From: Solirubrobacteraceae bacterium
GTDB taxonomy: Bacteria > Actinomycetota > Thermoleophilia > Solirubrobacterales > Solirubrobacteraceae
Reading direction: 5' to 3'
DNA length: 35,907 bases
NCBI GenBank assembly: GCA_032119675.1
Contig: JAUMBN010000062.1
Coordinates: 1 to 35,907 of the forward strand
The notes under the pieces were generated by a model that made no database searches, was not told where the DNA came from, and saw nothing but the letters and a program-made list of their open reading frames with translations. Shown here piece by piece: positions 2,321 to 33,670 of this stretch; the stretch's first letter is position 1, and each line of letters starts with the position of its first letter. The position numbers and the translations under genes were made by a program.

Positions 2321-3126
2321 GCGGCCTCCCCTGCGGCAGTCGGCTGGGCCGAGCGCAGGGCGGTGGCCATGGCGTGGTAGCCGCCGTCGACGTGGAGGAT
2401 CTCGCCGGTGATCGCCCGCGAGAGGTCGGAGAAGAGGAAGCAGGCGGCGTCGGCAACCGGGCCGCTGTCGTTCGGGTCCCACGGCAGGGGCGAGCGGCCC
2501 TCCCACGCATCGAGAAGCACGTCGAAGTCGGGAATGCCGCCGGCCGCGCGCGTGTGGATCGGCCCGGCGGCGATGAGGTTTGCCCGGATTCCGCTCTTGC
2601 CCAGGTCGCGCGCGAGGTAGCGGTTGGCCGACTCCAGGGCGGCCTTGCAGACCCCCATCCAGTTGTAGACCGGCCATGCGCCCCCGGCGTCGAAGTCGAG
2701 CCCGGCCAGGGAAGAGCCGGAGCCGGGCGAGAGGTCGCGGAGGACCCGTCCCAGGGCCGCGTACGAAACGGCACTGGTCTGGAATGCGATGTTCAGGTCG
2801 CCCGCGGGGGCCTCCATGAACTCGCCGGCGAGCGCGGCCCGCGGAGCGAAGGCGATCGCGTGGAGGGCTCCGTCCAGGCGGCCCCAGAGCTCGTCGATGG
2901 AGGAGCGCAGGGCGGCGGTGTCGTCTTCGCTGGTCAGGTCGGCGGCGACGATCGGCGGCTCTGACGGGAGAGTCCTGGCAGCTTCCAGGGTCTTGGCGAG
3001 GTCGCGGGGAAACGCGCTGAGCACGATCTCCGCGCCCAGCTCCTGCGCGCGCGCCGCAGAGGCGAAGGCGATGCTGTCGTCGTTTACGACCCCGGTGATG
3101 AGCAGCCGCTTGCCCTCGAGGATCAT
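2317..3126 (-). CDS. fabI: enoyl-[acyl-carrier-protein] reductase (NADH), FabI/InhA type
   Basis: 269 aa. [24 protein letters not shown] is the Rossmann N-terminus of Fab[14 protein letters not shown] carries the Tyr-x6-Lys catalytic pair. The C-terminal [13 protein letters not shown] is also typical. Confidence 0.9.
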
Positions 3127-3632
3127 CGCTTCGACCCGCTCATCTCGGCCTGTACCCGCGCGTCGCCTTCATGGGCGCGGTCGGCCAGGGCGCCCTGGGC
3201 ATCTGCGACCCGAGACCGGACGTCGGGGTCGCCGGCGCCGATTATCCGGGCGGCGAGCAGGCCGGCGTTGCGCCCACCCCCGATCGCAACGGTGGCCACC
3301 GGCACCCCGGAGGGCATCTGGACGATCGACAGGAGCGAGTCGAGCCCGTCTAGGTTCTTCAGGGGCACCGGCACGCCGATTACCGGGAGCGGCGTACATG
3401 CGGCGAGCATCCCGGGAAGGTGGGCTGCCCCGCCGGCGCCGGCGATCAGCACCTGCAGCCCGCGGCGGGCGGCGGTGCTGCCGTAATCGATCATCTCGTG
3501 CGGGGTCCGGTGAGCGGAGACGACCCTCACCTCGCTGGAGATGCCGAGTTCGTCGAGCGCCTCCGCGGCCGGCTGCATCACCTGCAGGTCCGAGTCGCTT
3601 CCCATCACTATTCCCACTGCCGGTTCGCCCAT
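3123..3632 (-). CDS. purE: N5-carboxyaminoimidazole ribonucleotide mutase
   Basis: 169 aa. [17 protein letters not shown]...[11 protein letters not shown]...[12 protein letters not shown]...PVIGVPV are classic PurE motifs. ATGA overlaps occur with both neighbours (3632 and 3123-3126). Confidence 0.95.
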
Positions 3633-5835: not shown

Positions 5836-5863
5836 AAGCCTGTATTTCCGGCCGTATTTAGCC

Positions 5864-5869
5864 TATCCT
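5864..5869 (+). promoter_or_regulatory. candidate -10 hexamer TATCCT, 6 nt before GTG 5876 (leaderless arrangement)
   Basis: TANNNT followed by a 6-nt spacer and then the start codon. The same geometry recurs at seven other unit heads in this window. Confidence 0.4.
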
Positions 5870-5875
5870 TGCTTC

Positions 5876-6157
5876 GTGGCGGACTGGACCTTCCTGACCA
5901 ACCACGCCCACGTGATGATCTGCGTGGCCCAGGACCCGAACATACGGCTCCGGGATGTAGCCGAGCGCGTCGGTATCACCGAGCGCGCGGCGCAGCGGAT
6001 CGTCGCTGATCTCGTCGAGGCCGGCTACCTCGAGCGAAGCCGCGAGGGACGGCGCAACAGCTACCGGCTTAACCCCGACCTTCCGCTGCGCCACCCGCTG
6101 GAGCGCCAGCACTCGATCGGCGAGATCATCGAGGTCCTCGCCGGCGCACCCGCCTGA
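5876..6157 (+). CDS. winged helix-turn-helix transcriptional regulator (ArsR/MarR-like, 93 aa)
   Basis: IRLRDVAERVGITERAAQRIVADLVEAGYLERSREGRRNSYRLN is an HTH plus wing. The gene is divergent from the permease operon. Confidence 0.8.
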   Translation: MADWTFLTNHAHVMICVAQDPNIRLRDVAERVGITERAAQRIVADLVEAGYLERSREGRRNSYRLNPDLPLRHPLERQHSIGEIIEVLAGAPA

Positions 6158-6619: not shown

Positions 6620-6713
6620 CGCGCCAATCTTCGCGCATCTGCGGGAAAGCCCGTAACTTTCGGGGTCTGAGCGTGTCTCTAATGGTGGCGGGCGCCGTTG
6701 CCCGCGACGCCCA

Positions 6714-8003
6714 ATGACCCTGATTTCGCCCAACACCATCAGACTCGTGACCGCCGCTGCGGCGGCCGTTGGCGTCCTCGCCCTCCCGGCCGCCGCTTCG
6801 GCGCTTGAGTACGTGCCCGGCGAGGTCGTCGTCAGCTACGAGCCCGGCCAGGCGCCGGCCGGCGTTGTGCCGGGCCAGCCCGTGGTCGTGCCGGTGGAGA
6901 ACGTCCGCGAGGCGGTCGCCGACCTCAAGGGCCAGCCCGGGATCGAGTACGCCGTTCCGAACGTGATCGCCCGTGCCGCCCGGGCGCGGTCGGCCCAGTT
7001 CCTGCCCAACGACCCGGAGATGAAGAGCCTGCAGTGGAACTTCCTCGGCCCCTACGGCGTGAGGGCGCCGGAGGCCTGGGCCAACGCGATCGCCGCCGGC
7101 CGCCCCGGGGGGAAGGGCGTCGTGATTGCCGTGCTGGACACCGGGGTGGCCTACTCCAACCGCACCCCCTTCAAGCGCTCCCCCGACTTCACTTCAGGGC
7201 AGTTCACCAAGGGCTATGACTACGTCGACCGGGACCGTTATCCCAGCGACGACAACGGCCACGGGACCCACGTCGCCGGGACGATCGCCGAGGCGACCAA
7301 CAACGGCATCGCCGTGGCCGGGCTGGCCTACGGGGCGAAGGTCATGCCGGTGCGCGTGCTCGACGCCAACGGCGAGGGCAACGCCAACGACATCGCGCGC
7401 GGCGTGCGCTTCGCCGTCAGGAACAGGGCCAAGCTGATCAACCTCAGCCTCGAGTTCGACTCCCGCGTGCGCGCCGACGACATCCCCCAGATCCTCGACG
7501 CCCTCGACTACGCGCGCAGCCGGGGCGTGCTGGTGGTTGGCGCCACCGGCAACGAGGGCGCCAACAGCGTCTCCTACCCGGCCCGCTCTTCGGCCGTGAT
7601 GGCCGTCGGTTCCACCACCGAGGACGGCTGCATATCCGAGTTCTCCAACGGCGGCTCCGGCATCGACATCGTCGCGCCCGGCGGCGGACTCGACGCCCGG
7701 GTTCCCGGCGACCCGCGCTGCCGCCAGAGCTTCAACGGCCGCGGCATCTACCAGGTGACCCTCCTGGGCAAGTCGCTCTCGCGCTTCGGCCTGCCCGGCA
7801 CCTACGAGGGAACCTCGATGGCTGCGCCCCACGTAACCGGCGCCGCCGCGCTGGTGATCGCCACCGGGGTCCTGGGCGAGAACCCGTCTCCGGCGACCCT
7901 CCAGAGGCACCTGCAGCGCACCGCCCGCGACTTCGGTCCCTCGGGCGCCGACAGCCTCTACGGCTGGGGGCTGCTCGACGCCGCCCAGGCCACGGCGAAG
8001 TAG
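6714..8003 (+). CDS. secreted S8 family (subtilisin-like) serine peptidase
   Basis: 429 aa. Signal peptide LVTAAAAAVGVLALPAAASA. Catalytic triad motifs are VIAVLDTGV (Asp), HGTHVAGTI (His) and GTSMAAPHVTGAAAL (Ser). Confidence 0.92.
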   Translation: MTLISPNTIRLVTAAAAAVGVLALPAAASALEYVPGEVVVSYEPGQAPAGVVPGQPVVVPVENVREAVADLKGQPGIEYAVPNVIARAARARSAQFLPNDPEMKSLQWNFLGPYGVRAPEAWANAIAAGRPGGKGVVIAVLDTGVAYSNRTPFKRSPDFTSGQFTKGYDYVDRDRYPSDDNGHGTHVAGTIAEATNNGIAVAGLAYGAKVMPVRVLDANGEGNANDIARGVRFAVRNRAKLINLSLEFDSRVRADDIPQILDALDYARSRGVLVVGATGNEGANSVSYPARSSAVMAVGSTTEDGCISEFSNGGSGIDIVAPGGGLDARVPGDPRCRQSFNGRGIYQVTLLGKSLSRFGLPGTYEGTSMAAPHVTGAAALVIATGVLGENPSPATLQRHLQRTARDFGPSGADSLYGWGLLDAAQATAK

Positions 8004-16882: not shown

Positions 16883-17842
16883 ATGGCGCCCGCAGTCCTG
16901 ATCATCCCCGCGGGAGACCCGGAGCTCGCTCCCGCCGGCCCCCTTGCCGAGGGGCTCCGTGCCGCCGACGCCGGCGTCGAGGTGCGCTTCGCTGAGACGC
17001 CCGGCCCGCGGCTGGCCGCCAGCAACCCGGTGGCGGGTATGGCGGCGCGGATCGCATCCAGGTCGGCGGCGAAGGAGCTGCCCGGACTCGTGACCCTCAA
17101 CGGGGCCCAGGTGGTCGTCTCCGACGACCCGGCCGTGATTGCGGCGATGGGCAGGCTGCGCCGCTCGGGCGGCCTGAGCGTTCCGGCGGTGGCCCTGGTT
17201 ACCCGGCAGGCCGACCCGGCTTCACAGGCGGCCGATGGCGTCGACGTCCACCTCATCGCCGACCCGCGCTTTCGCGCCGTCGTCCGCGAGGCCGCCCCCG
17301 CAACGCGCATCGCCTGCGTCCGCGGCCTCGTGGACCCCCGTTACGAGAGCGAGCTGGAGGTAACGCGCGCCCGCCAGGCGATCGGTGTCCCCGACGGCAG
17401 CCCGCTGGTCGTGATCTTCGGGGGGCAGGACGCCCGGGGCGACCTCGCCGGCGCCGGGGAGGTCGCGCTGGCCGCCGACCCGGCCTCGCGCGTGGTGATC
17501 CTCTGCGGCGACAGCGAGGAGCGCCTCCAGGAGCTTGGGGACCGCTTCTCCCTTGCGCGCCGCCTGCGGGTCGTCGGGCCGACCGACCGGCTTCCGGACC
17601 TGCTGGCCGCCGCCGACGTGCTGATCGACACCGCCGACGGGCTCACCGCGCTGGAGGCCCGGCTCCGTGGCGCCGCGGTGATCGCCCACGGCCGCAGGTC
17701 GGAGCGCGACCGGCAGGAGCTTGCCGACGAGCTGATCGAGACCCTGCGCCGACCCCGGGCGACCGGCTCAGCGATCGCGGACCGGCCCGCCGCGGCCGAC
17801 GAGGTTCTCGCCGCCGCCGGGCTGGCTCCCCTGCCGGTCTGA
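16883..17842 (+). CDS. putative glycosyltransferase (GT28 / MGDG-synthase-like C-terminal domain)
   Basis: 319 aa. PLVVIFGGQDARG...VVILCGDSEERLQEL...LRVVGPTDRLPDLLAAADVLIDTADGLTALEA follows the GT-B C-domain pattern of MurG/UgtP-like enzymes. The N-domain is divergent. Confidence 0.55.
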   Translation: MAPAVLIIPAGDPELAPAGPLAEGLRAADAGVEVRFAETPGPRLAASNPVAGMAARIASRSAAKELPGLVTLNGAQVVVSDDPAVIAAMGRLRRSGGLSVPAVALVTRQADPASQAADGVDVHLIADPRFRAVVREAAPATRIACVRGLVDPRYESELEVTRARQAIGVPDGSPLVVIFGGQDARGDLAGAGEVALAADPASRVVILCGDSEERLQELGDRFSLARRLRVVGPTDRLPDLLAAADVLIDTADGLTALEARLRGAAVIAHGRRSERDRQELADELIETLRRPRATGSAIADRPAAADEVLAAAGLAPLPV

Positions 17843-17850
17843 GGCCCGGC

Positions 17851-18213
17851 TCAGGCCGCAGCGAGAGGGTGCAGCTCGGCGCGCTCCAGGGCTTCGGTTC
17901 GCAGGTGGGTGATCGCCTGGTAGCCCTCGCTCGTGACCATGTCGAGGAAGGCCTGGACGCTGGGGTAGCGAACGAGGAGCACGCTGTCCCAGTCGGAATC
18001 GTCTTCGCCGATCAGCGGTGAGGCGGCCTCGCCGGCAAAGACGATCTCGGCTCCGCTCTCCTGGAGGAAGGGGAAGGCCTTGGCGCCGTAGGCCTCGTAG
18101 CTCTCGCGGCCGCCGTCGGGCTTGAAGCGGAGCAGGTTGAGCATGACCACCGGCCCGCCGGTGTCTTCCTTTACAAGGCGCGAGACCTGCTCTGGAGTGG
18201 GATCGACCGGCAT
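17851..18213 (-). CDS. DUF1330 domain protein
   Basis: 120 aa. VVMLNLLRFK...YEAYGAKAFPFLQESGAEIVFAG...WDSVLLVRYPSVQAFLDMVTSEGYQ is typical DUF1330. SD-like AAAGGAAC lies 5 nt upstream. The gene starts 28 nt after the RDD gene stop. Confidence 0.85.
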   Translation of the reverse strand: MPVDPTPEQVSRLVKEDTGGPVVMLNLLRFKPDGGRESYEAYGAKAFPFLQESGAEIVFAGEAASPLIGEDDSDWDSVLLVRYPSVQAFLDMVTSEGYQAITHLRTEALERAELHPLAAA

Positions 18214-18241
18214 GGGGGTTCCTTTCGGGTTGGCCTGCTGC

Positions 18242-18925
18242 TCAGCGGGGCTTGCTCTTCGACGGGTCGAGGTGCTGCTCGGCCGAGCTGTAGCGGGGCT
18301 TGTACTTGTTGATGGCGGCGTCGCGGGCCAGGCGCCTGCGATCGGCGACAGTGTAAACGGGCGCGTCTATAACGACGCTGTCGCTGATGATGTCCAGGAA
18401 GCAGCGGCAGCGCTCGTTGAAGAGGCCGATGGCATAACCGGCACCGAACGGGATCGCCCCGAGCACCATGCCGACGAAGCGGAGCAGTGAGTGGCGGATG
18501 GTCAGCGGGCGCCCGTCGTCCTCGTCAACGACCCGGAACTCCAACGCCCGGGCGCCCGGGGTCTGGCCGGTGCTCGACCAGAACGAGACGAAGTAGGCGG
18601 TGGCCCAGATCAGGTAAACCACGCCGAGGATCGCGAGGATCACGGCTTCCGCGCTGTCGGGAACACCCAGGGTGTTCATGGTCAGGGCGGTGATCGCCCA
18701 GGTGATTGCCGCGACCAGGTTGACGATCGCCGCGTCGATGACGAATCCGAGCAGCCGGGAGACCAGGCCCACGTACCGCTGTGGTGCTCCCTTGACCGCC
18801 GACGACCCGCGCAGTCGCACCGCCGCGGCCACCTGCGCCCGGGCGATCGCCGACTCGGCCGGGCCGCTTGCCGACCAGTCGTCGGGCTGGGCAGGTGCAG
18901 CCTGTGATGCTCCCGTATCGGTCAC
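18242..18925 (-). CDS. RDD family membrane protein
   Basis: 227 aa. YVGLVSRLLGFVIDAAIVNLV...TPGARALEFRVVDEDDGRP...RFVGMVLGAIPFGAGY with 3 predicted TM segments. The GTG start overlaps the upstream TGA as GTGA (18922-18925). Confidence 0.85.
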   Translation of the reverse strand: MTDTGASQAAPAQPDDWSASGPAESAIARAQVAAAVRLRGSSAVKGAPQRYVGLVSRLLGFVIDAAIVNLVAAITWAITALTMNTLGVPDSAEAVILAILGVVYLIWATAYFVSFWSSTGQTPGARALEFRVVDEDDGRPLTIRHSLLRFVGMVLGAIPFGAGYAIGLFNERCRCFLDIISDSVVIDAPVYTVADRRRLARDAAINKYKPRYSSAEQHLDPSKSKPR

Positions 18926-19656
18926 GAGCCGGCTTCCTTGCCGCCGTGCTTCCCGCCGCCCCTGCTCCCGGCATCGTTCTCCTGGTCGGAGGGCAGCTGG
19001 GCGTCGAGCTTCTCGCTGCGGCCGATGAAGGTGCGTGCGGTGCGGGCGACCACCTGGTCGGCGGTGCGAGAGCGTCCGCGGACCTCGTCGCCGACCTGGT
19101 CGGCGAAGCCGAACCCCTGCTGGCGGACGGCGTCGATGACCGCGGGGCTCTCGGCGATCGTCTGCACGAGGATCCAGAGCTCCTCGCGCTCGAGGAATGC
19201 GTCGACGATCGGCGCCATCTCCCCGGCCTCCATCGCCGCGACGGTGATCTTCTGGACCATCTGGCTGCGGGCCACCTCGTCGGCGATCATGTCGATGGTC
19301 TCGGGGCTGAGGATGGTTCGCAGTGCGCTGGCGAAGGCCGGCCCGCTGACCACCCGCTCGAGCGTCTCCTGGACGGCCGGCGAGCCGACGACGGCGTCGA
19401 CCGCGCTGGTCATCGCCGGACTGGCCACCACCCGCTCGATCGAGTCCTGGACGGCCCTCGATGCCATCACCGTCTCCACGGCGCCCTCGGTGGCGCGAAT
19501 GGTCACCTCGGCCCCGGTACGGGCAGCGGCGCCGACGGCGCCGGCCACGGCACCGGTGATCGCACCGAAGAGGCCACCCGAGGGGCCGGCCGCTTCCGCC
19601 TCGATCACGATGATCTCTGCGCTTGCTTCCACGGGGCGGGAGGCTACCGCCCCCAT
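18922..19656 (-). CDS. hypothetical repeat protein (244 aa): Gly/Ala-rich N-segment, ~8-10 degenerate 13-aa helical repeats, charged C-tail
   Basis: This is the tail of track ORF 18922..20157; the upstream part overlaps the heliorhodopsin gene and is junk. From ATG 19656: MGAVASRPVEASAEIIVIEAEAAGPSGGLFGAITGAVAGAVGAAARTG... followed by AVQDSIERVVASP / AMTSAVDAVVGSP / AVQETLERVVSGP / AFASALRTILSP... An alternative CTG start at 19695 overlaps the heliorhodopsin stop (CTGA). Confidence 0.7.
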   Translation of the reverse strand: MGAVASRPVEASAEIIVIEAEAAGPSGGLFGAITGAVAGAVGAAARTGAEVTIRATEGAVETVMASRAVQDSIERVVASPAMTSAVDAVVGSPAVQETLERVVSGPAFASALRTILSPETIDMIADEVARSQMVQKITVAAMEAGEMAPIVDAFLEREELWILVQTIAESPAVIDAVRQQGFGFADQVGDEVRGRSRTADQVVARTARTFIGRSEKLDAQLPSDQENDAGSRGGGKHGGKEAGS

Positions 19657-19691
19657 TCGGCCGCCGCCGTCGAGCCCGGCGGTGCTCTCTC

Positions 19692-20495
19692 TCAGCCGCC
19701 GGCCAGGGCGCCGAAGTAGACCTGCCAGGCCAGGACGCTCTTGGCGATCAGGCTCAGCCAGAGGTAGGCCTTCTCGGCGAAGACCGGGTCGGCCCAGCGC
19801 CCGACGGCCTGGTACTGCAGCCACATGTTGAGGGCGAAGAGGTTGAAGAGGACGAAGAGCGTCCCGAAGATCACGTAGACGAAGACCGGCACTCCGTCTG
19901 AGTTGTCGGCCGCGGTCGAGGAGAGGATCAGCTGCAGCGCGATCGCGATCCAGGGCACAGCCCCGATCACGCACCCGTAGACGAACGGGCGCCACTGGAC
20001 CCTCGTCCGGTCGACGTTCGTGTACTCCATCACGAGGCCGAAGAGGATCATCGCGGCGTTGGCGCCGAAGATCGCCACCAGCGCGGTCAGCTCGCTGATG
20101 CCGGAGAGCATCGCGATCAGAACCACCATGATCGAGGCGCTGATCGAGTACTCCCACCAGCGCGCCGGGTTGATTCCGCGGCGCACGTTTCGCAGGTACC
20201 AGTCGCGCACCCCGGGGAGGGAGACCCCGAGGTGGTCGATCGCGGCCAGCAGCAGGAAGAGGCCGACCGCGAGGTCGATCCTCATCGTGAAGAGTTCGGT
20301 CATGCCGGGCGGCTCGGGACCCCCCGGCGGGCCGGTCATGTAGTTCAGGTTGACCGGCAGGCGCGCCGGGCCGGCGATCGCCACGATCACGATCGCCTGC
20401 GCGAGGTGGACGAGCCCGACGATTACGTTCAGGCGCAGCAGCGAGCGGTCTTCCCGGCGGACGCCCGATGGCGTGCCCTGAATCGCAGCTTCCAC
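19692..20495 (-). CDS. heliorhodopsin (retinal-binding 7TM photoreceptor, inverted topology family)
   Basis: 267 aa with 7 hydrophobic helices and a long TM1-TM2 loop (NLNYMTGPPGGPEPPGMTELFTM). It matches what I recall of prototype heliorhodopsin 48C12. TM3 RWWEYSISASIMVVLIAMLSG carries the Glu counterion. TM4 is ALVAIFGANAAMILFG. TM7 YLWLSLIAKSVLAWQVYFGAL carries the Schiff-base Lys, encoded at 19740-19742. Both conserved His positions (LVHLAQ and AIDHLG) are present. Confidence 0.85.
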   Translation of the reverse strand: MEAAIQGTPSGVRREDRSLLRLNVIVGLVHLAQAIVIVAIAGPARLPVNLNYMTGPPGGPEPPGMTELFTMRIDLAVGLFLLLAAIDHLGVSLPGVRDWYLRNVRRGINPARWWEYSISASIMVVLIAMLSGISELTALVAIFGANAAMILFGLVMEYTNVDRTRVQWRPFVYGCVIGAVPWIAIALQLILSSTAADNSDGVPVFVYVIFGTLFVLFNLFALNMWLQYQAVGRWADPVFAEKAYLWLSLIAKSVLAWQVYFGALAGG

Positions 20496-20502
20496 GCCCC
20501 CG

Positions 20503-20508
20503 ATGGTA
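20503..20508 (-). promoter_or_regulatory. candidate -10 hexamer TACCAT, 7 nt before the heliorhodopsin GTG 20495 (leaderless arrangement)
   Basis: The complement of atggta at 20503-20508. It lies in the 34-nt spacer between the tRNA-Ser 3' end and the GTG. Confidence 0.4.
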
Positions 20509-20529
20509 GGCGGAAGGGGGGACGCGGAG

Positions 20530-20618
20530 CGGAGAGGGCGGGATTCGAACCCGCGAACGAGGTTTCCCCCGTTACTCGCTTAGCAGGCGAGTGCCTTCAG
20601 CCGCTCGGCCACCTCTCC
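20530..20618 (-). tRNA. tRNA-Ser (anticodon GCT)
   Basis: The minus strand reads GGAGAGGTGGCCGAGCGGCTGAAGGCACTCGCCTGCTAAGCGAGTAACGGGGGAAACCTCGTTCGCGGGTTCGAATCCCGCCCTCTCCG. It has a 7-bp acceptor stem, anticodon loop CTGCTAA, a long variable arm and T-loop GGTTCGAATCC. No CCA is encoded. Confidence 0.93.
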
Positions 20619-20628
20619 GGGATGGCGG

Positions 20629-20634
20629 AGTGTA
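20629..20634 (-). promoter_or_regulatory. candidate -10 hexamer TACACT, 10 nt upstream of the tRNA-Ser(GCT) 5' end
   Basis: The complement of agtgta. The same hexamer at the same 10-nt spacing precedes tRNA-Arg at 22875-22880. Confidence 0.4.
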
Positions 20635-20706
20635 ACCCGGGCGGCAAGGTCGCCGAACACGGTGCGTCACAATCGAAACCCTGGGCGGTCTCCCGTGTAG
20701 ACACCT

Positions 20707-22863
20707 ATGCTGACTACCTACGTGCATCCCGTGAAAGCCCGCAGACAGAGCCGTGTTTCCCGGCGCCTGATGGCGTATTTCGGCCTTTTCGCCGCGGCTG
20801 CGGGCGCGGCGCTGCTTGCCGCTCCGGCCTCGCAGGCCGCCGGTGAGCCCGACTACATCGTTCTTTACAAGCCCGGTACCAACGTCAGCGCCGAGGTACG
20901 CAGCGAGGAGAGGCGCGGCAACGAGGTGGAGGACGTCTTCCGCAGCGCCGTGAAGGGGATCGTCGCCCCGCTCGACAGATCCGACGTCGCCCGGCTGCGC
21001 CGCGACGCCGATGTGCTCCTGGTCGAGCGCGACGGCCCTGTCCGTGCCTTCGCCGCCGGTCCGCGCGACCAGAGCCCTGCCACCTGGGGCCTCGACCGGA
21101 TCGACCAGCGCGCCCTGCCGCTCAACAACCGGATCACCACCGACCAGAACGGTTTCGGCGTCAAGGCCTACATCATCGACACCGGCATCCGGGCCGACCA
21201 CTCCGAGTTCACCGGCCGCATGGTGTCGGGCTTCGACGCCATCGGTGACGGCCAGGGCACCAACGACTGCAACGGCCACGGGACCCACGTGGCCGGCACC
21301 GTCGGTGGCTCGACCTACGGCGTCGCCCCGCAGACGACCCTCGTCCCGGTGCGCGTCCTGAGCTGCTCGGGCTCGGGCAGCTTCTCGGGCGTCATCGCCG
21401 GCATCGACTGGGTCACCGCCAACCACTCGGCCGGCGAGCCGGCCGTGGCCAACATGAGCCTCGGTGGCGGCTACTCAGCCTCCATCAACACCGCGGTGGC
21501 CAACGCGAGCAACGACGGCGTAACGATGGTCGTCGCGGCCGGTAACTCGAACGCCGATGCCTGCAACTACTCGCCGGCCTCGGCTCCGAGCGCGATCACC
21601 GTCGGCTCGACCGTGTCCAACGACGGGCGCTCCTCCTTCTCCAACTACGGAACCTGCCTCGACATCTTCGCCCCGGGCTCGGGCATCACCTCGGCCTGGC
21701 ACACCTCGATTTCGGCGACCAACACGATCTCCGGTACCTCGATGGCGTCGCCGCACGTAGCCGGCGCTGCCGCGCTGGTGCTCTCCCGTGACGCGACGGC
21801 CAATCCCGGCCAGGTCACCGGAGCCCTCAACAACGCCGCGACCACCAATGTCGTGACCAGCCCCGGCACCGGCTCGCCCAACCGCCTCCTGTTCACCGGC
21901 GCGGCGACCATCCCGAACCCCAGCGACCCCGCGCCGACGCCCGATCCGACGCCGGCACCCCCACCCGCGCCGGCTCCGACCCCGCCGGCCAACGACAACT
22001 TCGCCTCGGCACCGACGCTCTCCTCGCTCTCGGCGGTCACGGGCTCAACCATCAACGCCACCCGCGAGGCCGGAGAGCCGGCGCACGTGGGCGCGGCGTA
22101 CGGCAGCTCGAAGTCGATCTGGTACCGCTGGACCGCGGCCGAGTCGGGGACCGTCACCCTCTCGACCCAGGGCAGCGCCTACGACACGCTTCTCGCCGTC
22201 TACGTCGGTGACACCATCTCCGGGCTCTCCGCGAAGGCCGCAAACGACGATTCGGGCGGAGGTCTCTGGAGCCAGGTGAGCTTCCAGGCTTCGGCCGGCA
22301 CCACCTACCGGATCGCCGTCGACGGCTGGAACGGAGCCTCGGGCAGCACGAACCTCTCGGGCGCGTTCGTCGCCGACCCGCCGCCGGCCCCGGCGCCCGA
22401 CCCGACCCCCACGCCGGACCCGACCCCGACCCCGACACCGACGCCGGACCCGACCCCGACGCCGGACCCGACCCCCACGCCTGAGCCCGACCCGACTCCC
22501 GAGCCCGTCCCGCAGCCGGTACCCGGGATCGTCGCACCCACCAGCTCGACGGTGAACGTCTCCCGCCGCACGGCCACCACCACGGTTACCTGCCAGCCGG
22601 TGACCGACGACGGCAACGACGCGCCGTGCGCCGCCTTCCTGCGCCTCGACACCACCCTGGGCGACTCGGTTCGCGGCATCCGTCTGGAAGTGGACGAGAG
22701 CGGGCAGGTCAGCTTCCGCCTCAGCTCGGCGATGGCCCGGCGGGTCAACCTGCGCGGCAGCGTTGCGGCCCGGATCGTCGTCTCCCAGGCGGCCGGCCGC
22801 GCGGTCTACCGCGTGAACCTCGTCAAGGCCTCCTCGGCTTCGCGCAGAGCCGCCCGCCGCTGA
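20707..22863 (+). CDS. secreted multidomain S8 (proteinase K-like) serine peptidase: I9-like propeptide, catalytic domain, PT linker, beta-sandwich domain, PT linker, unknown C-terminal domain
   Basis: 718 aa. Signal peptide [26 protein letters not shown]. Propeptide YIVLYKPG...VLLVERD. Triad motifs are [26 protein letters not shown] and [15 protein letters not shown]. The middle domain reads NDNFASAP...REAGEPAH...IWYRWTA...[11 protein letters not shown]...ANDDS...TYRIAVDG. The start may instead be ATG 20770. Confidence 0.9.
22375..22524 (+). repeat. Pro/Thr/Asp-rich low-complexity coding repeat (linker) within the S8 gene
   Basis: The DNA is made of ccgac/cccgac-type iterations encoding [51 protein letters not shown] shorter PT linker lies at about 21913-21990. 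Confidence 0.8.
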
Positions 22864-22890: not shown

Positions 22891-22964
<74 letters not shown>

Positions 22965-23041
22965 CTGCACCGGGTTTTCCGGGCGGCGGCGCAGCCGGCC
23001 AGGAGCTGTCTTGGACCTGCGCTTGCGCCGATGTTGTGTTG

Positions 23042-23047
23042 TAGCTT
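23042..23047 (+). promoter_or_regulatory. candidate -10 hexamer TAGCTT, 6 nt before ATG 23054 (leaderless arrangement)
   Basis: TANNNT-N6-start read directly from the sequence. Confidence 0.4.
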
Positions 23048-23053
23048 CGGGCG

Positions 23054-25249
23054 ATGAGGCTTGTGAGGGTGTTTGTGTTGTCGCTCATGTCGACCGCTCT
23101 GGTTGCCGGTTCGGGTGGTTCTGCGCTGGCGTCGATCGGCTCGGCCTCCTCCGCCGGGCCGGTCCGGGTCGAGGTCGATACACCGACCCCGCAGGCGGTT
23201 GAAGCCCTGGTGGAGGCCGGGCTCGACGTAGCCGCAGGCGACGTGCCCAAATCCGACGTGATCCTCTGGTCGAGGGAGGATCGGCTCACCCTGAGGAAGG
23301 CCGGCGCCCGGTGGCGGCCCCTCCCGGACCCGAGGCCCGTGGCCGGTGCCCAGGTCTCGACGCTCCCTTCAGGCAGGACGACATACCGGGTCTGGGAGGA
23401 CTACGAGACCGAGATGCGGATGCTCGCCAGGCGCTACCCGTCCCTGGTCCGGCTCCGCTCGATGGGCGAGACACTCCTCGGCCAGCCGATGCTCGGCCTG
23501 GAGATCGCAAGAAACGTCTGGGCGAGCGACGGCAGGCCGGCCTTCGTCCAGTACGGGCTCCATCACGCCCGGGAGTGGCCTTCGGGCGAGTGGGGCATCG
23601 AGTACGCGATCGAGATGCTCAAGAAGCAGGGCCAATCCCGTTACGCCAGCCTGCTGCGAAATACCCGCCAGTTCATCTTCCCCGTGATCAACGTCGACGG
23701 CTTCCAGGCATCGCGGGGCGCCGGCCCCAGTCCGATCGGGGCGCCGGACTCGGCCAGCTCGCTGCTCGGGCCGGGGAGTAACGAGTACCGCCGGAAGAAC
23801 TGCCGTCCGTTCCCCGGCGAGGCTCAACGACCCTGCAGTGAGCTCAATACGGAGGCCGGGGTCGACCTGAACCGCAACTACGGCTACTTCTTCGGCGCCA
23901 CCGGAACCGAAGCGATCGCCTCGAGCGAGATCTACCGCGGGCCGGCCGGGTTCTCCGAGCCGGAGAGCGAGAACGTCCGCCTGTTCACCAGGCGGCTCCA
24001 GCCGACCGTCGTCCTCAGCCACCACACCTACTCGGAAGAGGGGCAATGGCTGCGACAGCCCTCCCTGGACCCGGCGATACCCCCCGGCGACATAACGCCC
24101 GACGAGGCCGAGTTCACGGCCCTCGGGGACTCGATGGCGACAGCCACCGGATGGGCCTCGCTGCCTGCCTTCCAGCTCTACCCCACAGCCGGTGCGACCG
24201 ATGACTGGAACTACCACGCCCAGGGAGCTCTCGCCTTCACCAGCGAGGGCCGCGGACCCGACTTCCACTCCTTCTTCGACCAGGTGGTCCGGAACGAGTG
24301 GCCGGGCATGAAGGAGGCGATCCTCCGCGCGGCCGAGGCGTCGGTCCGGGAGGGCTCACGGATAAGGGGCGAGGCTCCGCCTGGCTCGAAGCTGCGGATC
24401 GAAAAGAGGTTCTCGATCCCCGTCTGTCAGGGGTTCACCGAGACAGACCAGTGCATCTCCCCCACACCGACGATCCCCGAACGCCTCTCGAGCGAGATGG
24501 CCGTGCCGGCCTCGGGCGAGTTCTCATGGCGGGTCAACCCGTCCTCGCGGCCGCTGGCCCCCGGGGAGACCTGGCGTCTTACCTGCAAGGCTCCGGGCGG
24601 AGATCCGGTGAGCCGCGAAGTCGCCGTCGGGAGGGGTCGATCGGTGGCCGTGGGACTCGCCAACTGCCGCCCCGGACCGGCCGGGCGACCGGTGGCCAGG
24701 TTTCGTCTGATCGAGCGGGCCATCGCGGGCCGGAGGGCCGTCCTGGTCTCCCGGAGCACCGACCCCGACACCCTCATCGTCTCGAACCGGTGGGACCTCG
24801 ACGGGGATGGCGCATTTGACGACGCCTACGGTCGGGTGGCCGCGCCTACCTGGCGGCGCCCGGGGCTCAGGACCGTGGGCCTGAGGTCGGTCGACCTGAA
24901 CGGCAGGGTCGCGGTGACCCGCCGGCAGGTCCGGGTGGCGCCAAGGCCCTCCGGCCGGCCGTCACTTTCCCTTCGAATCAGCTCTTCGATGGGCGGCACG
25001 AACGTCGTCTTCCGCGCCGCCGGGCCGCTCGGCACCTACAGCTGGGACCTTGACGGCGACGGCGCCTTCGACGACGGACGCGGCAGCGAAATATCCCGCT
25101 CGTATCGCTTCGCAGGCACCTACCGGATCCAGGTCCGGCTGAGAGATCCCTTTGGCCGGATCGCTACCCGTCGGTCCTCGCTGACGATCGCTCAACTGTC
25201 CGATCCCGGGGCCGGGACAACCACGCCCCCGGCAGGCTCCGGCCGGTGA
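23054..25249 (+). CDS. secreted M14 family zinc carboxypeptidase with two C-terminal PKD-like repeats
   Basis: 731 aa. Signal peptide VFVLSLMSTALVAGSGGSALA. Zinc motif GLHHAREWPSGEW (HxxE), then FPVINVDG, DLNRNY and the second zinc His in LSHHTYSE. Two WDLDGDGAFDD motifs are encoded at 24791-24823 and 25043-25075, 252 nt (84 aa) apart. Confidence 0.88.
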   Translation: MRLVRVFVLSLMSTALVAGSGGSALASIGSASSAGPVRVEVDTPTPQAVEALVEAGLDVAAGDVPKSDVILWSREDRLTLRKAGARWRPLPDPRPVAGAQVSTLPSGRTTYRVWEDYETEMRMLARRYPSLVRLRSMGETLLGQPMLGLEIARNVWASDGRPAFVQYGLHHAREWPSGEWGIEYAIEMLKKQGQSRYASLLRNTRQFIFPVINVDGFQASRGAGPSPIGAPDSASSLLGPGSNEYRRKNCRPFPGEAQRPCSELNTEAGVDLNRNYGYFFGATGTEAIASSEIYRGPAGFSEPESENVRLFTRRLQPTVVLSHHTYSEEGQWLRQPSLDPAIPPGDITPDEAEFTALGDSMATATGWASLPAFQLYPTAGATDDWNYHAQGALAFTSEGRGPDFHSFFDQVVRNEWPGMKEAILRAAEASVREGSRIRGEAPPGSKLRIEKRFSIPVCQGFTETDQCISPTPTIPERLSSEMAVPASGEFSWRVNPSSRPLAPGETWRLTCKAPGGDPVSREVAVGRGRSVAVGLANCRPGPAGRPVARFRLIERAIAGRRAVLVSRSTDPDTLIVSNRWDLDGDGAFDDAYGRVAAPTWRRPGLRTVGLRSVDLNGRVAVTRRQVRVAPRPSGRPSLSLRISSSMGGTNVVFRAAGPLGTYSWDLDGDGAFDDGRGSEISRSYRFAGTYRIQVRLRDPFGRIATRRSSLTIAQLSDPGAGTTTPPAGSGR

Positions 25250-25271: not shown

Positions 25272-25345
<74 letters not shown>

Positions 25346-29733: not shown

Positions 29734-29736
29734 GAT
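29731..29736 (+). promoter_or_regulatory. candidate -10 hexamer TAGGAT, 6 nt before GTG 29743 (leaderless arrangement); overlaps the ppdK TAG stop
   Basis: TANNNT-N6-start read directly from the sequence. Confidence 0.35.
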
Positions 29737-29742
29737 TGCCCG

Positions 29743-31104
29743 GTGGGCGAAGAGCGGGTCGAGACCGGTGTCGTCGTGGTGGGGGCAGGCATTGCCGGGC
29801 TGACCGCGGCCTGGGAGCTGGCCGAATCCGGCATTGAAGTCTGCGTGCTCGAGGCGCGCGACCGGGTGGGCGGGCGTACCTGGAACACCGAGATTGGTGG
29901 CCAGGCCAACGAGCTCGGCGGCCAGTGGGTGGGTCCCTACCAGGAGGCTGTGCTCGAGACGCTGGAGATGCTGGGGCTGGAAACCTTCCCCTGCTTTCGG
30001 GAGGGCAGCCACGTCTACATCGACCCGGAAGGGGAGGCCCACCGGTACGAGGGCGAGGAGTTCCCGTTCCCGCCCGAGACCGCCGCCGCCTACGGCGAGG
30101 CGCTCGCCCGCCTCGACGAGCTCGCCGCGCAGATGGACCCGGAGGCACCCTGGGAGCATCCCGACGCCGGGTCGCTCGACTCCATCACCTTCGAGAGCTG
30201 GCTGGCCGCCGAGGTCTCCGACGAGATGGCCCGCGACATGCTTCGCTCGATGCTCGCCGGCGGTTTTATCGCCAAGCCGGCGCAGAGCTTCTCCCTCCTT
30301 CAGGGCCTCTGGATGATCGCCGGGGCCGGCGGCACCTACGAGCTTTTCGAGCCCGAGCAATGCCTGGCCAGCCGTATTGTCGGCGGCTCGCAGATGATCG
30401 CGATCGGCCTGGCCGAGCACCTGGGCGACCGGGTGCGGCTGGGCTCGCCGGTCTCCTCGGTCTCATGGTCGGACGGCGGGGTGGTGGCCGAGGCGCCGGG
30501 GGTCACGGTCAGCGCCCGCGCGGCGATCGTCGCGGTCCCACCGAACATGACCAACGCGATCCGCTTCGAGCCCGCACTGCCAGGCTGGCGCCAGCGGCTG
30601 GCCCAGGACCTCTCACAGGGCTCGATCATCAAGATCCTCGCCGTCTACGACGAGCCGTTCTGGCGACGCGACGGGCTCTCCGGCCAGGGCTTCGGCCCGT
30701 ATCAGCTGGTCCGTGAGCTCTACGACAACTCCCCGCCGTCGGGCCGGCCCGGGGTGCTGGTGACCTTCCTCGCCGGGGAAGCCGCCGAGGTGGGGGCCCG
30801 GATGGACCCGGTCGACCGCCGCACCGCCGTCCTCGAAGGGATGGCCCGCTACCTGGGGGGAGAGGCGCTCAACCCGGTCGATTACATCGAGGTCGACTGG
30901 TCCGAGGAGGAGTGGACCCGGGGCGCATACGGCACCAGCTATGGAACCGGCGGGCTGACCCGCTTCCGCGACGACCTGCGCCGGCCCGTTGGGCCGATCG
31001 AGTGGGCCTGCTCCGACATAGCCGGAGCCGGGCACATTCACATGGAGGGCGCGATCCGCATGGGGCGCCGCGCCGCCAAGGCCTGCCTCGAGCGCCGGAG
31101 CTGA
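29743..31104 (+). CDS. flavin monoamine oxidase family protein (putrescine oxidase-like)
   Basis: 453 aa. FAD dinucleotide fold VVVVGAGIAGLTAAWELAESGIEVCVLEARDRVGGR, then GGQWVGP...WSEEEWTRGAYG...CSDIAGAGHIHMEGAIRMG. Length and block order agree with what I recall of Rhodococcus putrescine oxidase. Confidence 0.85.
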   Translation: MGEERVETGVVVVGAGIAGLTAAWELAESGIEVCVLEARDRVGGRTWNTEIGGQANELGGQWVGPYQEAVLETLEMLGLETFPCFREGSHVYIDPEGEAHRYEGEEFPFPPETAAAYGEALARLDELAAQMDPEAPWEHPDAGSLDSITFESWLAAEVSDEMARDMLRSMLAGGFIAKPAQSFSLLQGLWMIAGAGGTYELFEPEQCLASRIVGGSQMIAIGLAEHLGDRVRLGSPVSSVSWSDGGVVAEAPGVTVSARAAIVAVPPNMTNAIRFEPALPGWRQRLAQDLSQGSIIKILAVYDEPFWRRDGLSGQGFGPYQLVRELYDNSPPSGRPGVLVTFLAGEAAEVGARMDPVDRRTAVLEGMARYLGGEALNPVDYIEVDWSEEEWTRGAYGTSYGTGGLTRFRDDLRRPVGPIEWACSDIAGAGHIHMEGAIRMGRRAAKACLERRS

Positions 31105-31161
31105 GCGGCCGCCCGCACCCGACCCTGCCCGCCGTCCGGGAGGCCCTGCCACAATCGGGGG

Positions 31162-32061
31162 GTGGACCGCTCCGAGCTGGACAGGCGCCGCGCCGAGAGC
31201 CGCGCCCGCACCCGGCGAAACCGGCTGGTCGTCCTCTTCTCGCTGGCGGCGGTCGCCGTCGCCGTTGCCGTGGTGGTGATCGTCTCCGGCCCCGGCTCAG
31301 GCTCAGGCAACAAGGCCCAGGCCGGCCCCGACGCCTACCGGACGGTCCCGGAGAAGGCCGCTTCGAAGCCCGTGGCAGAACCGGCCGAGCCGGAGCCGCA
31401 GGGGCCGCCCCCCCAGCAGATCAAGCCGGCGGTTCCCGGCAAGGGCAAGGTCATCACCGAGGGCCCCTCGAGCGCCGGGCGCAAGGTCGCGCTGACCATC
31501 GACGACGGCACGTGCGCGAAGTGCGTCGACCGCATTCTCGACGTGCTCGAGCAGACCGGCGGCAAGGCGACGATCTTCCCCAACGGGGTTTACGCCTCCA
31601 GCTGGGAGCCCCAGGCGCAGCGAATCCGCAAGCTCGTCGCCAGCCGCCAGCTGACCCTCGGCAACCACACCTACAGCCACCAGGTCTCGACCCAGGTCGG
31701 CCCGGAGGCCTTCGGTGCCGACCTCCAGCGCAACGAGGACTGGATCCAGGAGACCTTCAAGCTCACCGGGCGCCCGTGGTTCCGCCCACCGTACGGCGAC
31801 CGCGACGCCTCGATCGACGCCGCCGCCGGCCAGCGCGGCTACCGCAAGGTGATCATGTGGTCGGGAACGGTCGCCGACTCCGACCCGCGCAGCGAGGCCT
31901 ACATTCTCAACGCGATCGACTACTGGGCAAAGCCGGGGGCGATCATCCTGATGCACGCCAACTACCCGGCGACCGGGAAGGCGCTGCCGAAGATCTTTCG
32001 AATGCTGGAGAAGCGCCGGCTCGAGCCGGTCACCCTGGCCGAGTTGCTCGGCAGCTCCTGA
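31162..32061 (+). CDS. membrane-anchored polysaccharide deacetylase (NodB homology domain)
   Basis: 299 aa. N-terminal TM LVVLFSLAAVAVAVAVVVIV, a Pro-rich spacer, then the NodB motifs VALTIDDG, LGNHTYSH and RPPYG. Confidence 0.85.
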   Translation: MDRSELDRRRAESRARTRRNRLVVLFSLAAVAVAVAVVVIVSGPGSGSGNKAQAGPDAYRTVPEKAASKPVAEPAEPEPQGPPPQQIKPAVPGKGKVITEGPSSAGRKVALTIDDGTCAKCVDRILDVLEQTGGKATIFPNGVYASSWEPQAQRIRKLVASRQLTLGNHTYSHQVSTQVGPEAFGADLQRNEDWIQETFKLTGRPWFRPPYGDRDASIDAAAGQRGYRKVIMWSGTVADSDPRSEAYILNAIDYWAKPGAIILMHANYPATGKALPKIFRMLEKRRLEPVTLAELLGSS

Positions 32062-32526
32062 TCAGGCGGCGAGCACTTCGCGCAGCTCCGCGGCCGCGGC
32101 GTCGGTGCGCCGGCCCTGCCGCAGCCAGCTGACCACCCCGTCGCGGTCGCAGAGCACGACCGCGATCTGGGAGCGGTCGGGGAGCCCCAGCGCGTCGGAG
32201 ACGCGGGAGACGTCGCCGTAGACGGTCAGCGTGCGGGCCAGCACCTCCGGGTCGCGGATGGCGGCCGCCATCCCGCCGTCGATGAAGCCGCGGGCCGGCG
32301 ACCACCGGCGCGAGATGACCGGGATCTCGTAGCTGCGCAGAGCCGGGTCGGCTGCCTCGGCGGCGGCGAAGTCCTCCAGCCAGCTGTCGACGTCGCCTTG
32401 GTGGTTGCGCCGGAAGGCGACGGCGAGGAGATTGCGATCGCCGCCCAGCTCGGAGGGGAGCATCAGGCGCCGGCCGTCCAGGGACCGGGCTTCGACTGCG
32501 GGGAAGTTGCGGACGATCGTGCCCAC
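32062..32526 (-). CDS. hypothetical protein, possibly thioredoxin-fold (no CxxC)
   Basis: 154 aa. FPAVEARSLDGRRLMLPSELGGDRNLLAVAFRRNHQGDVDSWL resembles the start of a redoxin-like fold but has no redox cysteines. The GTG start is preceded by TAGCCT-N7. Confidence 0.6.
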   Translation of the reverse strand: MGTIVRNFPAVEARSLDGRRLMLPSELGGDRNLLAVAFRRNHQGDVDSWLEDFAAAEAADPALRSYEIPVISRRWSPARGFIDGGMAAAIRDPEVLARTLTVYGDVSRVSDALGLPDRSQIAVVLCDRDGVVSWLRQGRRTDAAAAELREVLAA

Positions 32527-32533
32527 GCCCCAG

Positions 32534-32539
32534 AGGCTA
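32534..32539 (-). promoter_or_regulatory. candidate -10 hexamer TAGCCT, 7 nt before GTG 32526 (leaderless arrangement)
   Basis: The complement of aggcta, read directly from the sequence. Confidence 0.4.
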
Positions 32540-32565
32540 GGGGTGAATTGCCGCCGGGCGACGCG

Positions 32566-32571
32566 TACGAT
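32566..32571 (+). promoter_or_regulatory. candidate -10 hexamer TACGAT, 7 nt before ATG 32579 (leaderless arrangement)
   Basis: Read directly. It supports ATG 32579 rather than the track start at 32405. Confidence 0.4.
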
Positions 32572-32578
32572 CCGCGCA

Positions 32579-33670
32579 ATGAGTGAGGTTCTTCACGGAA
32601 CGCCCGCCGCCGACGGGCTGAGGATGCCCGGGGAGTTCGAGCCCCATGAGGCGACCTGGATGCTCTGGCCGGTGCGGCCCGACAACTGGCGCGACGACGC
32701 CGGCCCGGCCCAGGAGGCCTTCGCCCGGGTTGCCGAGGCGATCGTTGCGGCCGAGCCGGTGAGGATGGGTGTGCCGGCGGGGGAGATGGAGCGGGCCGCC
32801 TCGATGCTGCCCGCCGCGGTGGAGCTCGTGGAGATGGAGAGCGACGACGCCTGGATGCGCGACGTGGGGCCGACGGTCGTCACCGCCGAAGGCACCCGGC
32901 GCGGCGTCGACTGGGAGTTCAACGCCTGGGGAGGGGAGACCGGCGGCCTCTACTCGAGCTGGGAGAAGGACGAGGACGTGGCCCGGCAGGTGCTGGAGTT
33001 TGAGGGGATGGGACGCTACTGCGCCCCGCTGGTCCTCGAGGGAGGCTCTATCCACGTCGACGGCGAGGGGACCTGCCTGACCACCGAGGAGTGCCTGCTC
33101 AACCCCAACCGCAACCCCAAGCTCGGCCGCGAGGAGATCGAGCGTCACCTGCGCGACTACCTGGGCGTGACGAAGGTGATCTGGCTCGGGCTGGGCGTCG
33201 TCGAGGACGAAACCGACGGCCACGTCGACGACGTGGCCTTCTTCGCCCGGCCGGGAGTCGTTGGGCTGCAGTGGTGCGAGGACGAGTCGGACCCGCAGCA
33301 CGCAAGATCGGTGGACGCGCTCGAGCGGCTCCGGGCGGCACGCGACGCGAAGGGCCGCGAGCTGGAGATCGTCCTGCTCCCGAACCCGGGACCGCTGTAC
33401 ATGACCGGGGAGGAGGCAGGCGGGATCGAGCAGGCACCCGGCACGCTGCCGCGCCTGGCCGGGGAGCGGCTCGCCGCCAGCTACGCCAACTGCTACCTGG
33501 CCAACGGGCGCGTGATCGCGCCCCGGCTCGACGAGCGCACCGACGACGAGGCCTTCGCGGCGCTCGAAGCGATCTTCCCCGAGCGCGAGGTCGTGCCGGT
33601 GCCCGGCCGGGAGATCCTCCTCGGCGGCGGGAACGTGCACTGCATAACCCAGCAGGTTCCGGCCGGCTGA
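32579..33670 (+). CDS. aguA: agmatine deiminase
   Basis: Track ORF 32405..33670 trimmed to ATG 32579 (MSEVLHGTPAADGLRMPGEFEPHEATWMLWP...). It has WMRDVGP, EGGSIHVDGEGT, the HVDD region and the catalytic-Cys C-terminus GGGNVHCITQQVP. The upstream 58 codons are Arg-rich junk overlapping the divergent gene. Confidence 0.9.
   Translation: MSEVLHGTPAADGLRMPGEFEPHEATWMLWPVRPDNWRDDAGPAQEAFARVAEAIVAAEPVRMGVPAGEMERAASMLPAAVELVEMESDDAWMRDVGPTVVTAEGTRRGVDWEFNAWGGETGGLYSSWEKDEDVARQVLEFEGMGRYCAPLVLEGGSIHVDGEGTCLTTEECLLNPNRNPKLGREEIERHLRDYLGVTKVIWLGLGVVEDETDGHVDDVAFFARPGVVGLQWCEDESDPQHARSVDALERLRAARDAKGRELEIVLLPNPGPLYMTGEEAGGIEQAPGTLPRLAGERLAASYANCYLANGRVIAPRLDERTDDEAFAALEAIFPEREVVPVPGREILLGGGNVHCITQQVPAG

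Follow-up and report, generated by a model that had tools for sequence, protein, structure and literature searches.

Heliorhodopsins (HeRs) have been known since 2018. Here, we describe a HeR gene in a 35,907-nucleotide (nt) stretch of DNA, hereafter the window, from contig JAUMBN010000062.1 of the Solirubrobacteraceae assembly GCA_032119675.1. The coding sequence occupies positions 19692..20495 on the minus strand and, according to the open reading frame (ORF) listing of the window, encodes a protein of 267 amino acids (aa) with a GTG start and a TGA stop, which is exactly the ORF that an initial annotation, made from the DNA letters alone, had read as a heliorhodopsin. The ORF contains RWWEYSISAS, AIFGANAAMILFG and LSLIAKSVLAWQ, and the GC content at its first, second and third codon positions is 0.65, 0.46 and 0.93, respectively, which is the coding signature of this approximately 70% GC sequence. 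As the open frame reaches into the tRNA-Ser(GCT) gene at 20529-20618, the GTG at 20495 is the most upstream start possible, and orthologues with 96-97% identity, which differ from the window protein by few amino-acid changes, carry an ATG at the matching codon.

The profile searches, the alignments to characterised family members, the structure model and the structural comparison all agree on the identity of the protein. The Pfam model for heliorhodopsins (PF18761) matches at 294.4 bits (gathering score 26.7), with residues 20-264 aligned to positions 2-242 of the 242-position model, and the NCBIfam equivalog model NF038020 ('heliorhodopsin HeR') matches over its full length at 280 bits against a cutoff of 100. 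The initial annotation had proposed a profile search and an alignment to the HeRs 48C12 and TaHeR as checks on its assignment; in the former, no other seven-transmembrane family scores among the Pfam models, the next-best family having an E-value of 0.14, and in the latter the key Lys and Glu fall in register with those of both proteins. In a sequence search against solved structures every match is a heliorhodopsin, including 48C12 (6SU3, 6UH3 and 9LJJ; E ~3e-53), TaHeR (6IS6 and 7CLJ; E ~5e-49) and the eukaryotic Cv06 (9VFC; E=2e-39), and the identity to 48C12 is 43.5% across 246 aligned residues. The gene is a genuine heliorhodopsin and an ordinary member of a large known family.

An AlphaFold2 model built from an alignment of 25 homologues (mean pLDDT 77.7, pTM 0.76) shows the expected architecture, with seven helices at residues 9-40, 73-90, 113-131, 135-159, 169-194, 204-228 and 237-266. 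The loop between the first two helices (AB loop, 41-72) forms a beta-hairpin with strands at 45-48 and 69-72 and a tip of low confidence (residues 52-58), so that both the seven transmembrane helices and the long hairpin loop described initially are seen in the model. The block AIFGANAAMILFG, which had been assigned to the fourth transmembrane segment, comprises residues 141-153 and lies within the fourth model helix, while K252 lies within the seventh. When the model was compared with the PDB using Foldseek, ranks 1-10 were all heliorhodopsins (E 1e-12 to 8e-11, TM-scores 0.77-0.85), and the best type-1 rhodopsin, at E=4e-3, was about nine orders of magnitude worse. With helix boundaries taken from the model, eight Lys and Arg residues fall in the N-terminal, BC, DE and FG segments versus two in AB, CD and EF, and counting the further Arg residues at the start of helix A (R13, R14, R17 and R21) gives 12 versus 2. 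Judged by this statistical rule, the charge distribution would fit the inverted topology with the N terminus inside the cell.

To map the retinal pocket, we used a pairwise alignment to 48C12 together with the residue lists of Kovalev et al. (PMC7049168), and conservation was counted over 78 related genome loci. All codons given below are on the minus strand. The retinal Schiff-base Lys is K252 (19740..19742), which aligns with K241 of 48C12 and K238 of TaHeR and is present in 78/78 loci, and its codon is the one named in the initial annotation. The counterion is E115 (20151..20153), equivalent to E107 of 48C12 and E108 of TaHeR and likewise a Glu in 78/78 loci. Both conserved His residues, also claimed at the outset, are in place: H88 (20232..20234) aligns with H80 of 48C12 and is His in all 78 loci, and H30 (20406..20408) aligns with H23. 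The remaining Schiff-base cavity is identical to that of 48C12, its residues N16, Y92, N101, R104, Y108 and E230 corresponding to N23, Y100, N109, R112, Y116 and E241 of the window protein. Further identities include W113 (W105 in 48C12), E157 (E149), Q227 (Q216), P47 (P40) and P181 (P172), and the Q26/S242/W246 cluster of 48C12 recurs as Q33/S253/W257.

The claim that all chromophore-pocket residues are intact is thus a slight overstatement: the Lys, the Glu, both His residues and the cavity are kept, whereas the position of Ser76 is Ala and three further pocket or tuning positions differ. Of the three conserved serines around the Schiff base, the equivalents of S111 (S119, identical) and of S237 (S248, which stands in place of the type-1 Asp212 and is kept in 78/78 relatives) are retained, and the third position is A84 (20244..20246), a natural S76A state found as Ala in 78/78 loci. 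The other changes relative to 48C12 are S112 to A120, Q148 to M156, Q213 to M224, Y226 to P237, Y179 to Q188, D127 to E135, S201 to T212, L96 to V104 and L227 to V238. As in the case of Ala84, Ala120 is present in 78/78 loci, and Met224 and Pro237 are found in 75 and 72 of the 78, respectively. Since these substitutions are subfamily-wide, the differences from the 48C12 pocket do not represent decay. Ser76 has been listed among three serines called highly conserved around the Schiff base (PMC9726877); the serine trio is a conserved trait of heliorhodopsins and does not define the family.

Two of the substituted positions, M156 (20028-20030) and M224 (19824..19826), are colour-tuning sites, and together with Ala251 they form a Met/Met/Ala pattern. 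The absorption maximum of 48C12 is 551 nm. Natural HeRs that carry Met, Met and Ala where 48C12 has Q148, Q213 and A240 show absorption maxima below 540 nm (PMC7807009), and the S76A mutant of 48C12 still forms a pigment, with a shift of +6 nm (cited in PMC9726877). From the tuning pattern and from this published mutagenesis, which bears on Ala84, we predict an absorption maximum of approximately 530-545 nm for the window protein.

The retention of H30 is informative, because 28 of the 78 related loci lack this His, 24 having Phe and four Ala at the position of His23. These replacements track the type of neighbouring gene. In ten loci a DPRP photolyase-related gene lies no more than about 2 kb from HeR, and all ten have Phe at this position; in four of them the DPRP gene directly adjoins HeR, 11-29 nt downstream. 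The four loci with Ala (L022, L048, L050 and L068) all belong to the clade in which HeR is linked to the genes X and RDD described below.

Purifying selection on the gene is evident from Nei-Gojobori ratios of nonsynonymous to synonymous substitution (dN/dS) of 0.047, 0.036 and 0.068 against the 96-97% identical orthologues in L005, L006 and L007 (dS 0.33-0.49), and the ratio against the 81% identical L001 is 0.23. With the core residues kept, this bears out the initial view that the gene is functional rather than decayed. The best relatives, at 96-97% identity, come from freshwater metagenome-assembled genomes (MAGs) of Solirubrobacterales and Solirubrobacteraceae (for example JBJTBE010000061, CAIKSH010000230 and JBBATA010000001), which also share the downstream genes, and the window DNA recurs almost verbatim in freshwater and lake metagenomes. 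Solirubrobacterales belong to the class Thermoleophilia of the phylum Actinomycetota, which is a monoderm phylum, and the actinobacterial host, as recognised initially, is in line with the reported restriction of HeRs to hosts without a classical outer membrane. More broadly, at least 580 loci that encode relatives were found when species-representative genomes were scanned, and 1,723 proteins among the protein-database candidates scored had E<=1e-10. Some of these database relatives already carry the name 'heliorhodopsin HeR', for example 'heliorhodopsin HeR [Paraconexibacter sp.]', NCBI naming being by NF038020, and HeRs of Thermoleophilia have been assigned to cluster C5 in Bulzu et al. The window HeR is new but unremarkable, in a family with thousands of members and with near-identical copies in public MAGs.

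Among characterised proteins, 48C12, from a freshwater actinobacterial fosmid of Lake Kinneret (6SU3, 6SU4, 6UH3 and 9LJJ), also has a freshwater actinobacterial host and is of the same length class, with seven transmembrane helices, the AB hairpin, Foldseek TM-scores of 0.78-0.85, and the W246 cluster and the lateral fenestration in common with the window HeR. The two differ in host class, Thermoleophilia in the case of the window, in the predicted blue shift of the window protein, and at the dimer interface, where the Y179 to Q and D127 to E replacements lie. TaHeR, from Thermoplasmatales archaeon SG8-52-1 (6IS6, 7U55 and 7CLJ), is 36-37% identical and has the same 'SISAS' motif, with Ala where 48C12 has S112, whereas its host is archaeal, it has Ser at the Ser76 position and its AB and EF loops are shorter. 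A third group of HeRs has been described as regulatory helpers, namely AbHeR with glutamine synthetase (PMC9529153), TfHeR with photolyase (PMC9769723) and OcHeR with the ABC transporter OmrDE (PMC11109279). These belong to the same family, and light-dependent modulation of a partner encoded nearby has been proposed for them; in contrast, no glutamine synthetase, NAD synthetase, photolyase, ABC transporter, MerR, DUF2177 or DUF2238 gene lies beside the window HeR. None of the ten HeR neighbour groups of Cho et al. (2024), which also include SDR, alpha/beta hydrolase and TerC, is adjacent to it; the TerC (993-1949) and SDR (2317-3168) genes of the window are 17-18 kb away, and on its own strand HeR has tRNA-Ser, X, RDD and DUF1330 as neighbours.

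Directly upstream of HeR, the tRNA-Ser(GCT) gene detected with ARAGORN (20529..20618, minus strand) is separated from the GTG start by 33 nt (20496-20528). This spacer contains TACCAT (20503..20508, minus strand), a -10-like TAnnnT hexamer that ends 7 nt short of the start codon and is a candidate leaderless promoter. The -10 consensus of Actinomycetota is TAnnnT, and an mRNA whose transcription begins at the start codon is leaderless. The arrangement of TAnnnT, 7 nt and ATG or GTG is shared by all nine members of the clade that were compared, namely the window and L001, L005, L006, L007, L022, L048, L050 and L068, while the sequence further upstream is unrelated among them, which suggests, on this comparative basis, that HeR may have its own promoter and a leaderless transcript. 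A sigma-70 consensus scan of 17700-20800 gave no promoter-like site, as expected for an actinobacterium. The spacer between tRNA-Ser and HeR is 33 nt in the window versus 54-79 nt in L005, L006 and L007, and in L001 and L050 the tRNA-Ser is inverted and lies kilobases from HeR; because tRNA spacer and orientation vary in this way among relatives, the region upstream of HeR is a rearrangement hot spot. Co-transcription of tRNA-Ser and HeR as a conserved feature was considered and rejected, the tRNA being upstream of HeR in the 96-97% identical relatives only.

Downstream on the same strand, three genes follow. Gene X (18922..19632, minus strand), recognised by its GC signal at third codon positions (GC3), begins 59 nt past the HeR stop and encodes an uncharacterised helical protein of about 236 aa; an alternative in-frame ATG at 19656 would give 244 aa, and the relatives of X begin at a GTG or ATG equivalent to 19632. 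It overlaps by 4 nt with a gene for an RDD-family membrane protein (18242..18925, minus strand; PF06271, 75.8 bits), and the run ends with a DUF1330 gene (17851..18213, minus strand; PF07045, 39.4 bits), which is syntenic in L001, L005, L007, L022, L050 and L068. Searches of Pfam, NCBIfam and the PDB returned no match to protein X. Its 48 homologues are all found near Solirubrobacterales, share the conserved core LWxLVxxIAxSPAVxxAIxQQGxGFADQVGDEVRxRSRxAD and are always followed by an RDD gene, with the 4-nt overlap in all but L088. The AlphaFold2 model of X (32 homologues) is all-helical and of low confidence (pLDDT 54.6, pTM 0.22).

As stated in the initial annotation, no gene for retinal biosynthesis is visible near HeR: neither a crt nor a blh gene was found among the GC3-supported ORFs scanned in the 36-kb window, a scan that covered all but the ORF at 5837-6157 (plus strand), the nested ORFs at 17222-17767 and 21645-22178 (both minus strand) and the ORF antisense to HeR. 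The sole Amino_oxidase-family gene of the window, 29734-31101, was considered as a CrtI candidate and ruled out (crtI_fam 43 bits versus a cutoff of 238); it encodes a putrescine oxidase, with 431 bits to PDB 2yg6. Among HeR-only genomes, 1 of 381 has a full de novo retinal pathway, and beta-carotene oxygenase and retinol dehydrogenase are present in 55% and 63%, respectively (bioRxiv 10.1101/2021.02.01.429150). Given the single complete pathway in 381 such genomes, the lack of retinal genes in the window is unremarkable.

The gene order of the window begins with a P450 fragment, TerC, an enoyl-ACP reductase-type SDR, PurK, a bicarbonate transporter, a deaminase and an S8 protease, and continues with Usp, phosphofructokinase, an AI-2E transporter, DUF1295, an acyltransferase and penicillin amidase. 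Thereafter come a GNAT-containing protein, an MGDG-synthase-like glycosyltransferase, DUF1330, RDD, X, HeR and tRNA-Ser, followed by an S8 protease, tRNA-Arg, an M14 carboxypeptidase, acyl-CoA dehydrogenase and PPDK, and finally by the amine oxidase, a polysaccharide deacetylase, agmatine deiminase, tRNA-Ser, and PxpC and PxpA. Several features of this background deserve mention. The start of the putrescine oxidase gene directly abuts the PPDK stop, and putrescine oxidase, polysaccharide deacetylase and agmatine deiminase stand in a row at 29734-33670 (plus strand), forming a small polyamine-catabolism cluster. The two S8 proteases (6657-8003 and 20707-22863, both plus strand) are secreted and subtilisin-like, the second having a proline/threonine-rich linker and a PPC domain, and, taken with the M14-PKD carboxypeptidase, they suggest a lifestyle of proteolysis outside the cell. 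The single gene for this carboxypeptidase (23045-25249) is flanked by two tRNA-Arg(ACG) genes found with ARAGORN (22891-22965 and 25272-25345, plus strand); the second has only the 3' ~52 nt in common with the first and a degenerate 5' half, so that the pair looks like an att-type partial tRNA duplication from an integration event. Antisense to HeR, a 107-aa ORF at 20020-20343 (plus strand; GC3 0.95) is open in 56 of the 78 related loci. The simplest reading of this ORF is a shadow of the GC3-rich HeR codons, and not a gene.

Based on these results, we consider it highly probable that the ORF encodes a functional subfamily-1 (48C12-like) HeR of a freshwater Solirubrobacterales bacterium. The family membership, the seven-helix fold with its AB hairpin, the core of Lys, Glu and two His residues, the Schiff-base cavity and the selective constraint are established by the analyses above, and the working of the protein can be sketched as follows. 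The HeR would insert with its N terminus in the cytoplasm, as family biochemistry suggests, and would bind all-trans retinal at K252, with E115 as the counterion stabilised by S119 and S248. It should absorb green light at approximately 530-545 nm, Met156, Met224 and Ala251 contributing a blue shift and Ala84 a small red shift. Green light would isomerise the chromophore, after which the Schiff-base proton would move into the cytoplasmic cavity formed by E115, H88, H30 and waters, with no net transport. A long-lived intermediate could then change the exterior of the protein, W257 and the cytoplasmic loops being possible sites, and thereby modulate a partner protein, for which AbHeR, TfHeR and OcHeR offer a precedent, such that the HeR would serve as a light sensor or regulatory helper and not as a pump. 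The retinal would most likely be exogenous, or derived from carotenoid cleavage by enzymes encoded elsewhere in the genome.

Some points weigh against this picture. The HeRs with a measured pigment, photocycle or partner are all at most 44% identical to the window HeR. Moreover, quantum mechanics/molecular mechanics calculations have led to the proposal that reorientation of Ser76 is a prerequisite for Schiff-base proton transfer (PMC9726877), and since this residue is Ala here, the details of proton transfer may differ from those in 48C12. The general function of HeRs is itself disputed, competing proposals casting them as sensors or regulators, as proteins with enzyme-like activity or as two-antenna light harvesters. 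Additionally, no contig over HeR was recovered from three metatranscriptomes of the study holding the window DNA, in which only fragments of the tRNA-Ser region appeared; these runs are kept as contigs, so this null result is uninformative and does not show that the transcript is absent.

With regard to the two-antenna idea, recently proposed for the family as a whole, the six positions named in bioRxiv 10.1101/2025.11.27.691015 as a lateral fenestration and putative carotenoid-binding site are all present: F162, C166, G169, F206, N207 and A210 of 48C12 correspond to F171, C175, G178, F217, N218 and A221, and they are near-invariant among the related loci. If the HeR were chiefly a light harvester of this type, an exogenous xanthophyll at the lateral fenestration would pass its energy to retinal. 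The proposal derives from structure comparison and docking, and the sections of the preprint consulted describe only the docking and a bound lipid, not a measured HeR with a carotenoid bound; the fenestration motif is present in 91% of HeRs, which makes it nothing specific to the window gene. The proposal furthermore accounts for light capture and not for output, and would complement a sensor function instead of excluding it. As the chief role of this HeR, we regard it as unlikely.

A second alternative concerns the neighbours, with HeR, X and RDD forming a light-regulated unit in which light-activated HeR binds and modulates X-RDD. The genes lie on the same strand, with a gap of 35-59 nt between HeR and X and with X overlapping RDD by 4 nt, and that strand carries no terminator-like site. 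All 12 loci of the clade share the order HeR-X-RDD(-DUF1330), at HeR identities of 67-97% and despite a rearranged upstream flank, with L006 among these loci having its sequence end about 100 nt past HeR and its downstream genes beyond reach. Such a unit would also be new, as it falls outside the ten neighbour groups of Cho et al. (PMC11109279), and we found no literature linking HeR with RDD or DUF1330.

Comparison beyond the clade turns against this unit. In about 70 further HeR loci of Solirubrobacterales, neither X nor RDD is close by, some having SDR, DPRP photolyase-related, MerR-B12 or PLP-enzyme genes as neighbours instead, and when ORFs within 4 kb of HeR were clustered across the 78 loci, no neighbour occurred in more than 13. 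X-RDD modules also exist without HeR in L085-L088 and in L089 and L090 (GCA_039744695.1 / GCA_039732675.1), which are syntenic with the window (X, RDD, GNAT protein, penicillin amidase and acyltransferase) and carry a HeR deletion scar before an intact X-RDD (L089:4905-5000 and the equivalent site in L090). What is left is a TAGCCT box with about 18 codons of the HeR N terminus (MEAATASSPIVAAKARGL), which run straight into about 12 codons of its C terminus (AQQVYFGARPGS); approximately 700 nt of HeR are gone, the Schiff-base Lys codon included. In the closest relatives of the window, a further TAGCCT box stands 7-8 nt ahead of the X start codon, suggesting that X is transcribed separately and, like HeR, may have a leaderless transcript. 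As HeR was lost while X-RDD stayed, the adjacency is best read as inherited synteny, and the deletion of HeR by a sister lineage that kept the neighbours shows that HeR is dispensable in this group. We therefore rejected X-RDD as an established HeR partner, given its occurrence beside HeR in one clade only and its persistence without HeR, and nothing in the window convincingly identifies the partner. That HeR is the light input of an undescribed membrane module of the orphan helical protein X and the RDD protein, modulating them upon illumination, is in our view quite improbable. If it were true, X-RDD would add an eleventh class, as yet uncharacterised, to the partners of HeRs, and the natural Ser76 to Ala replacement would show that HeR signalling can do without the proposed Ser76 switch.

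It is still harder to see in the window HeR a proton transporter driven or gated by light, of the kind represented by the viral V2HeR3. Both belong to the same superfamily and a protonatable network of E115, H30, H88 and E241 is present. Subfamily-2 HeRs, however, often have Glu at the position of L202, have lost P172 and show an altered retinal pocket (PMC7049168), whereas the window protein has Leu213 at the former position and keeps the pi-bulge proline as P181, which argues that it is not of the proton-transporting viral type. It also has an intact fenestration motif, which the transporting subfamily lacks according to bioRxiv 10.1101/2025.11.27.691015, and PMC11109279 reports that no pumping was found for the 48C12-like group. 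Transport is thus a very remote prospect for this protein. Finally, the reading of the ORF as a decaying remnant or a chance open frame, to which the many long spurious ORFs of GC-rich genomes and the HeR loss in a sister lineage might lend some colour, is already refuted by the full-length profile match with no frameshift or internal stop, the GC3 of 0.93, the dN/dS of 0.04-0.07 and the retention of all catalytic-core residues.

The Ala at Ser76, the predicted blue-shifted tuning, the conserved candidate leaderless promoter, the loss scar and the His23 replacements may be of specialist interest and leave the classification of this HeR as an ordinary family member unchanged. For the biology of the family, the gene documents what appears, from sequence comparison, to be a large subfamily centred on Thermoleophilia, with Ala invariably in place of Ser76 and with tuning sites that predict green-shifted absorption. 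The arrangement of TAnnnT followed after 7 nt by the start codon offers a concrete promoter and leaderless-mRNA model for HeR expression, and the deletion-scar comparison cautions against inferring the function of a HeR from its neighbouring genes.

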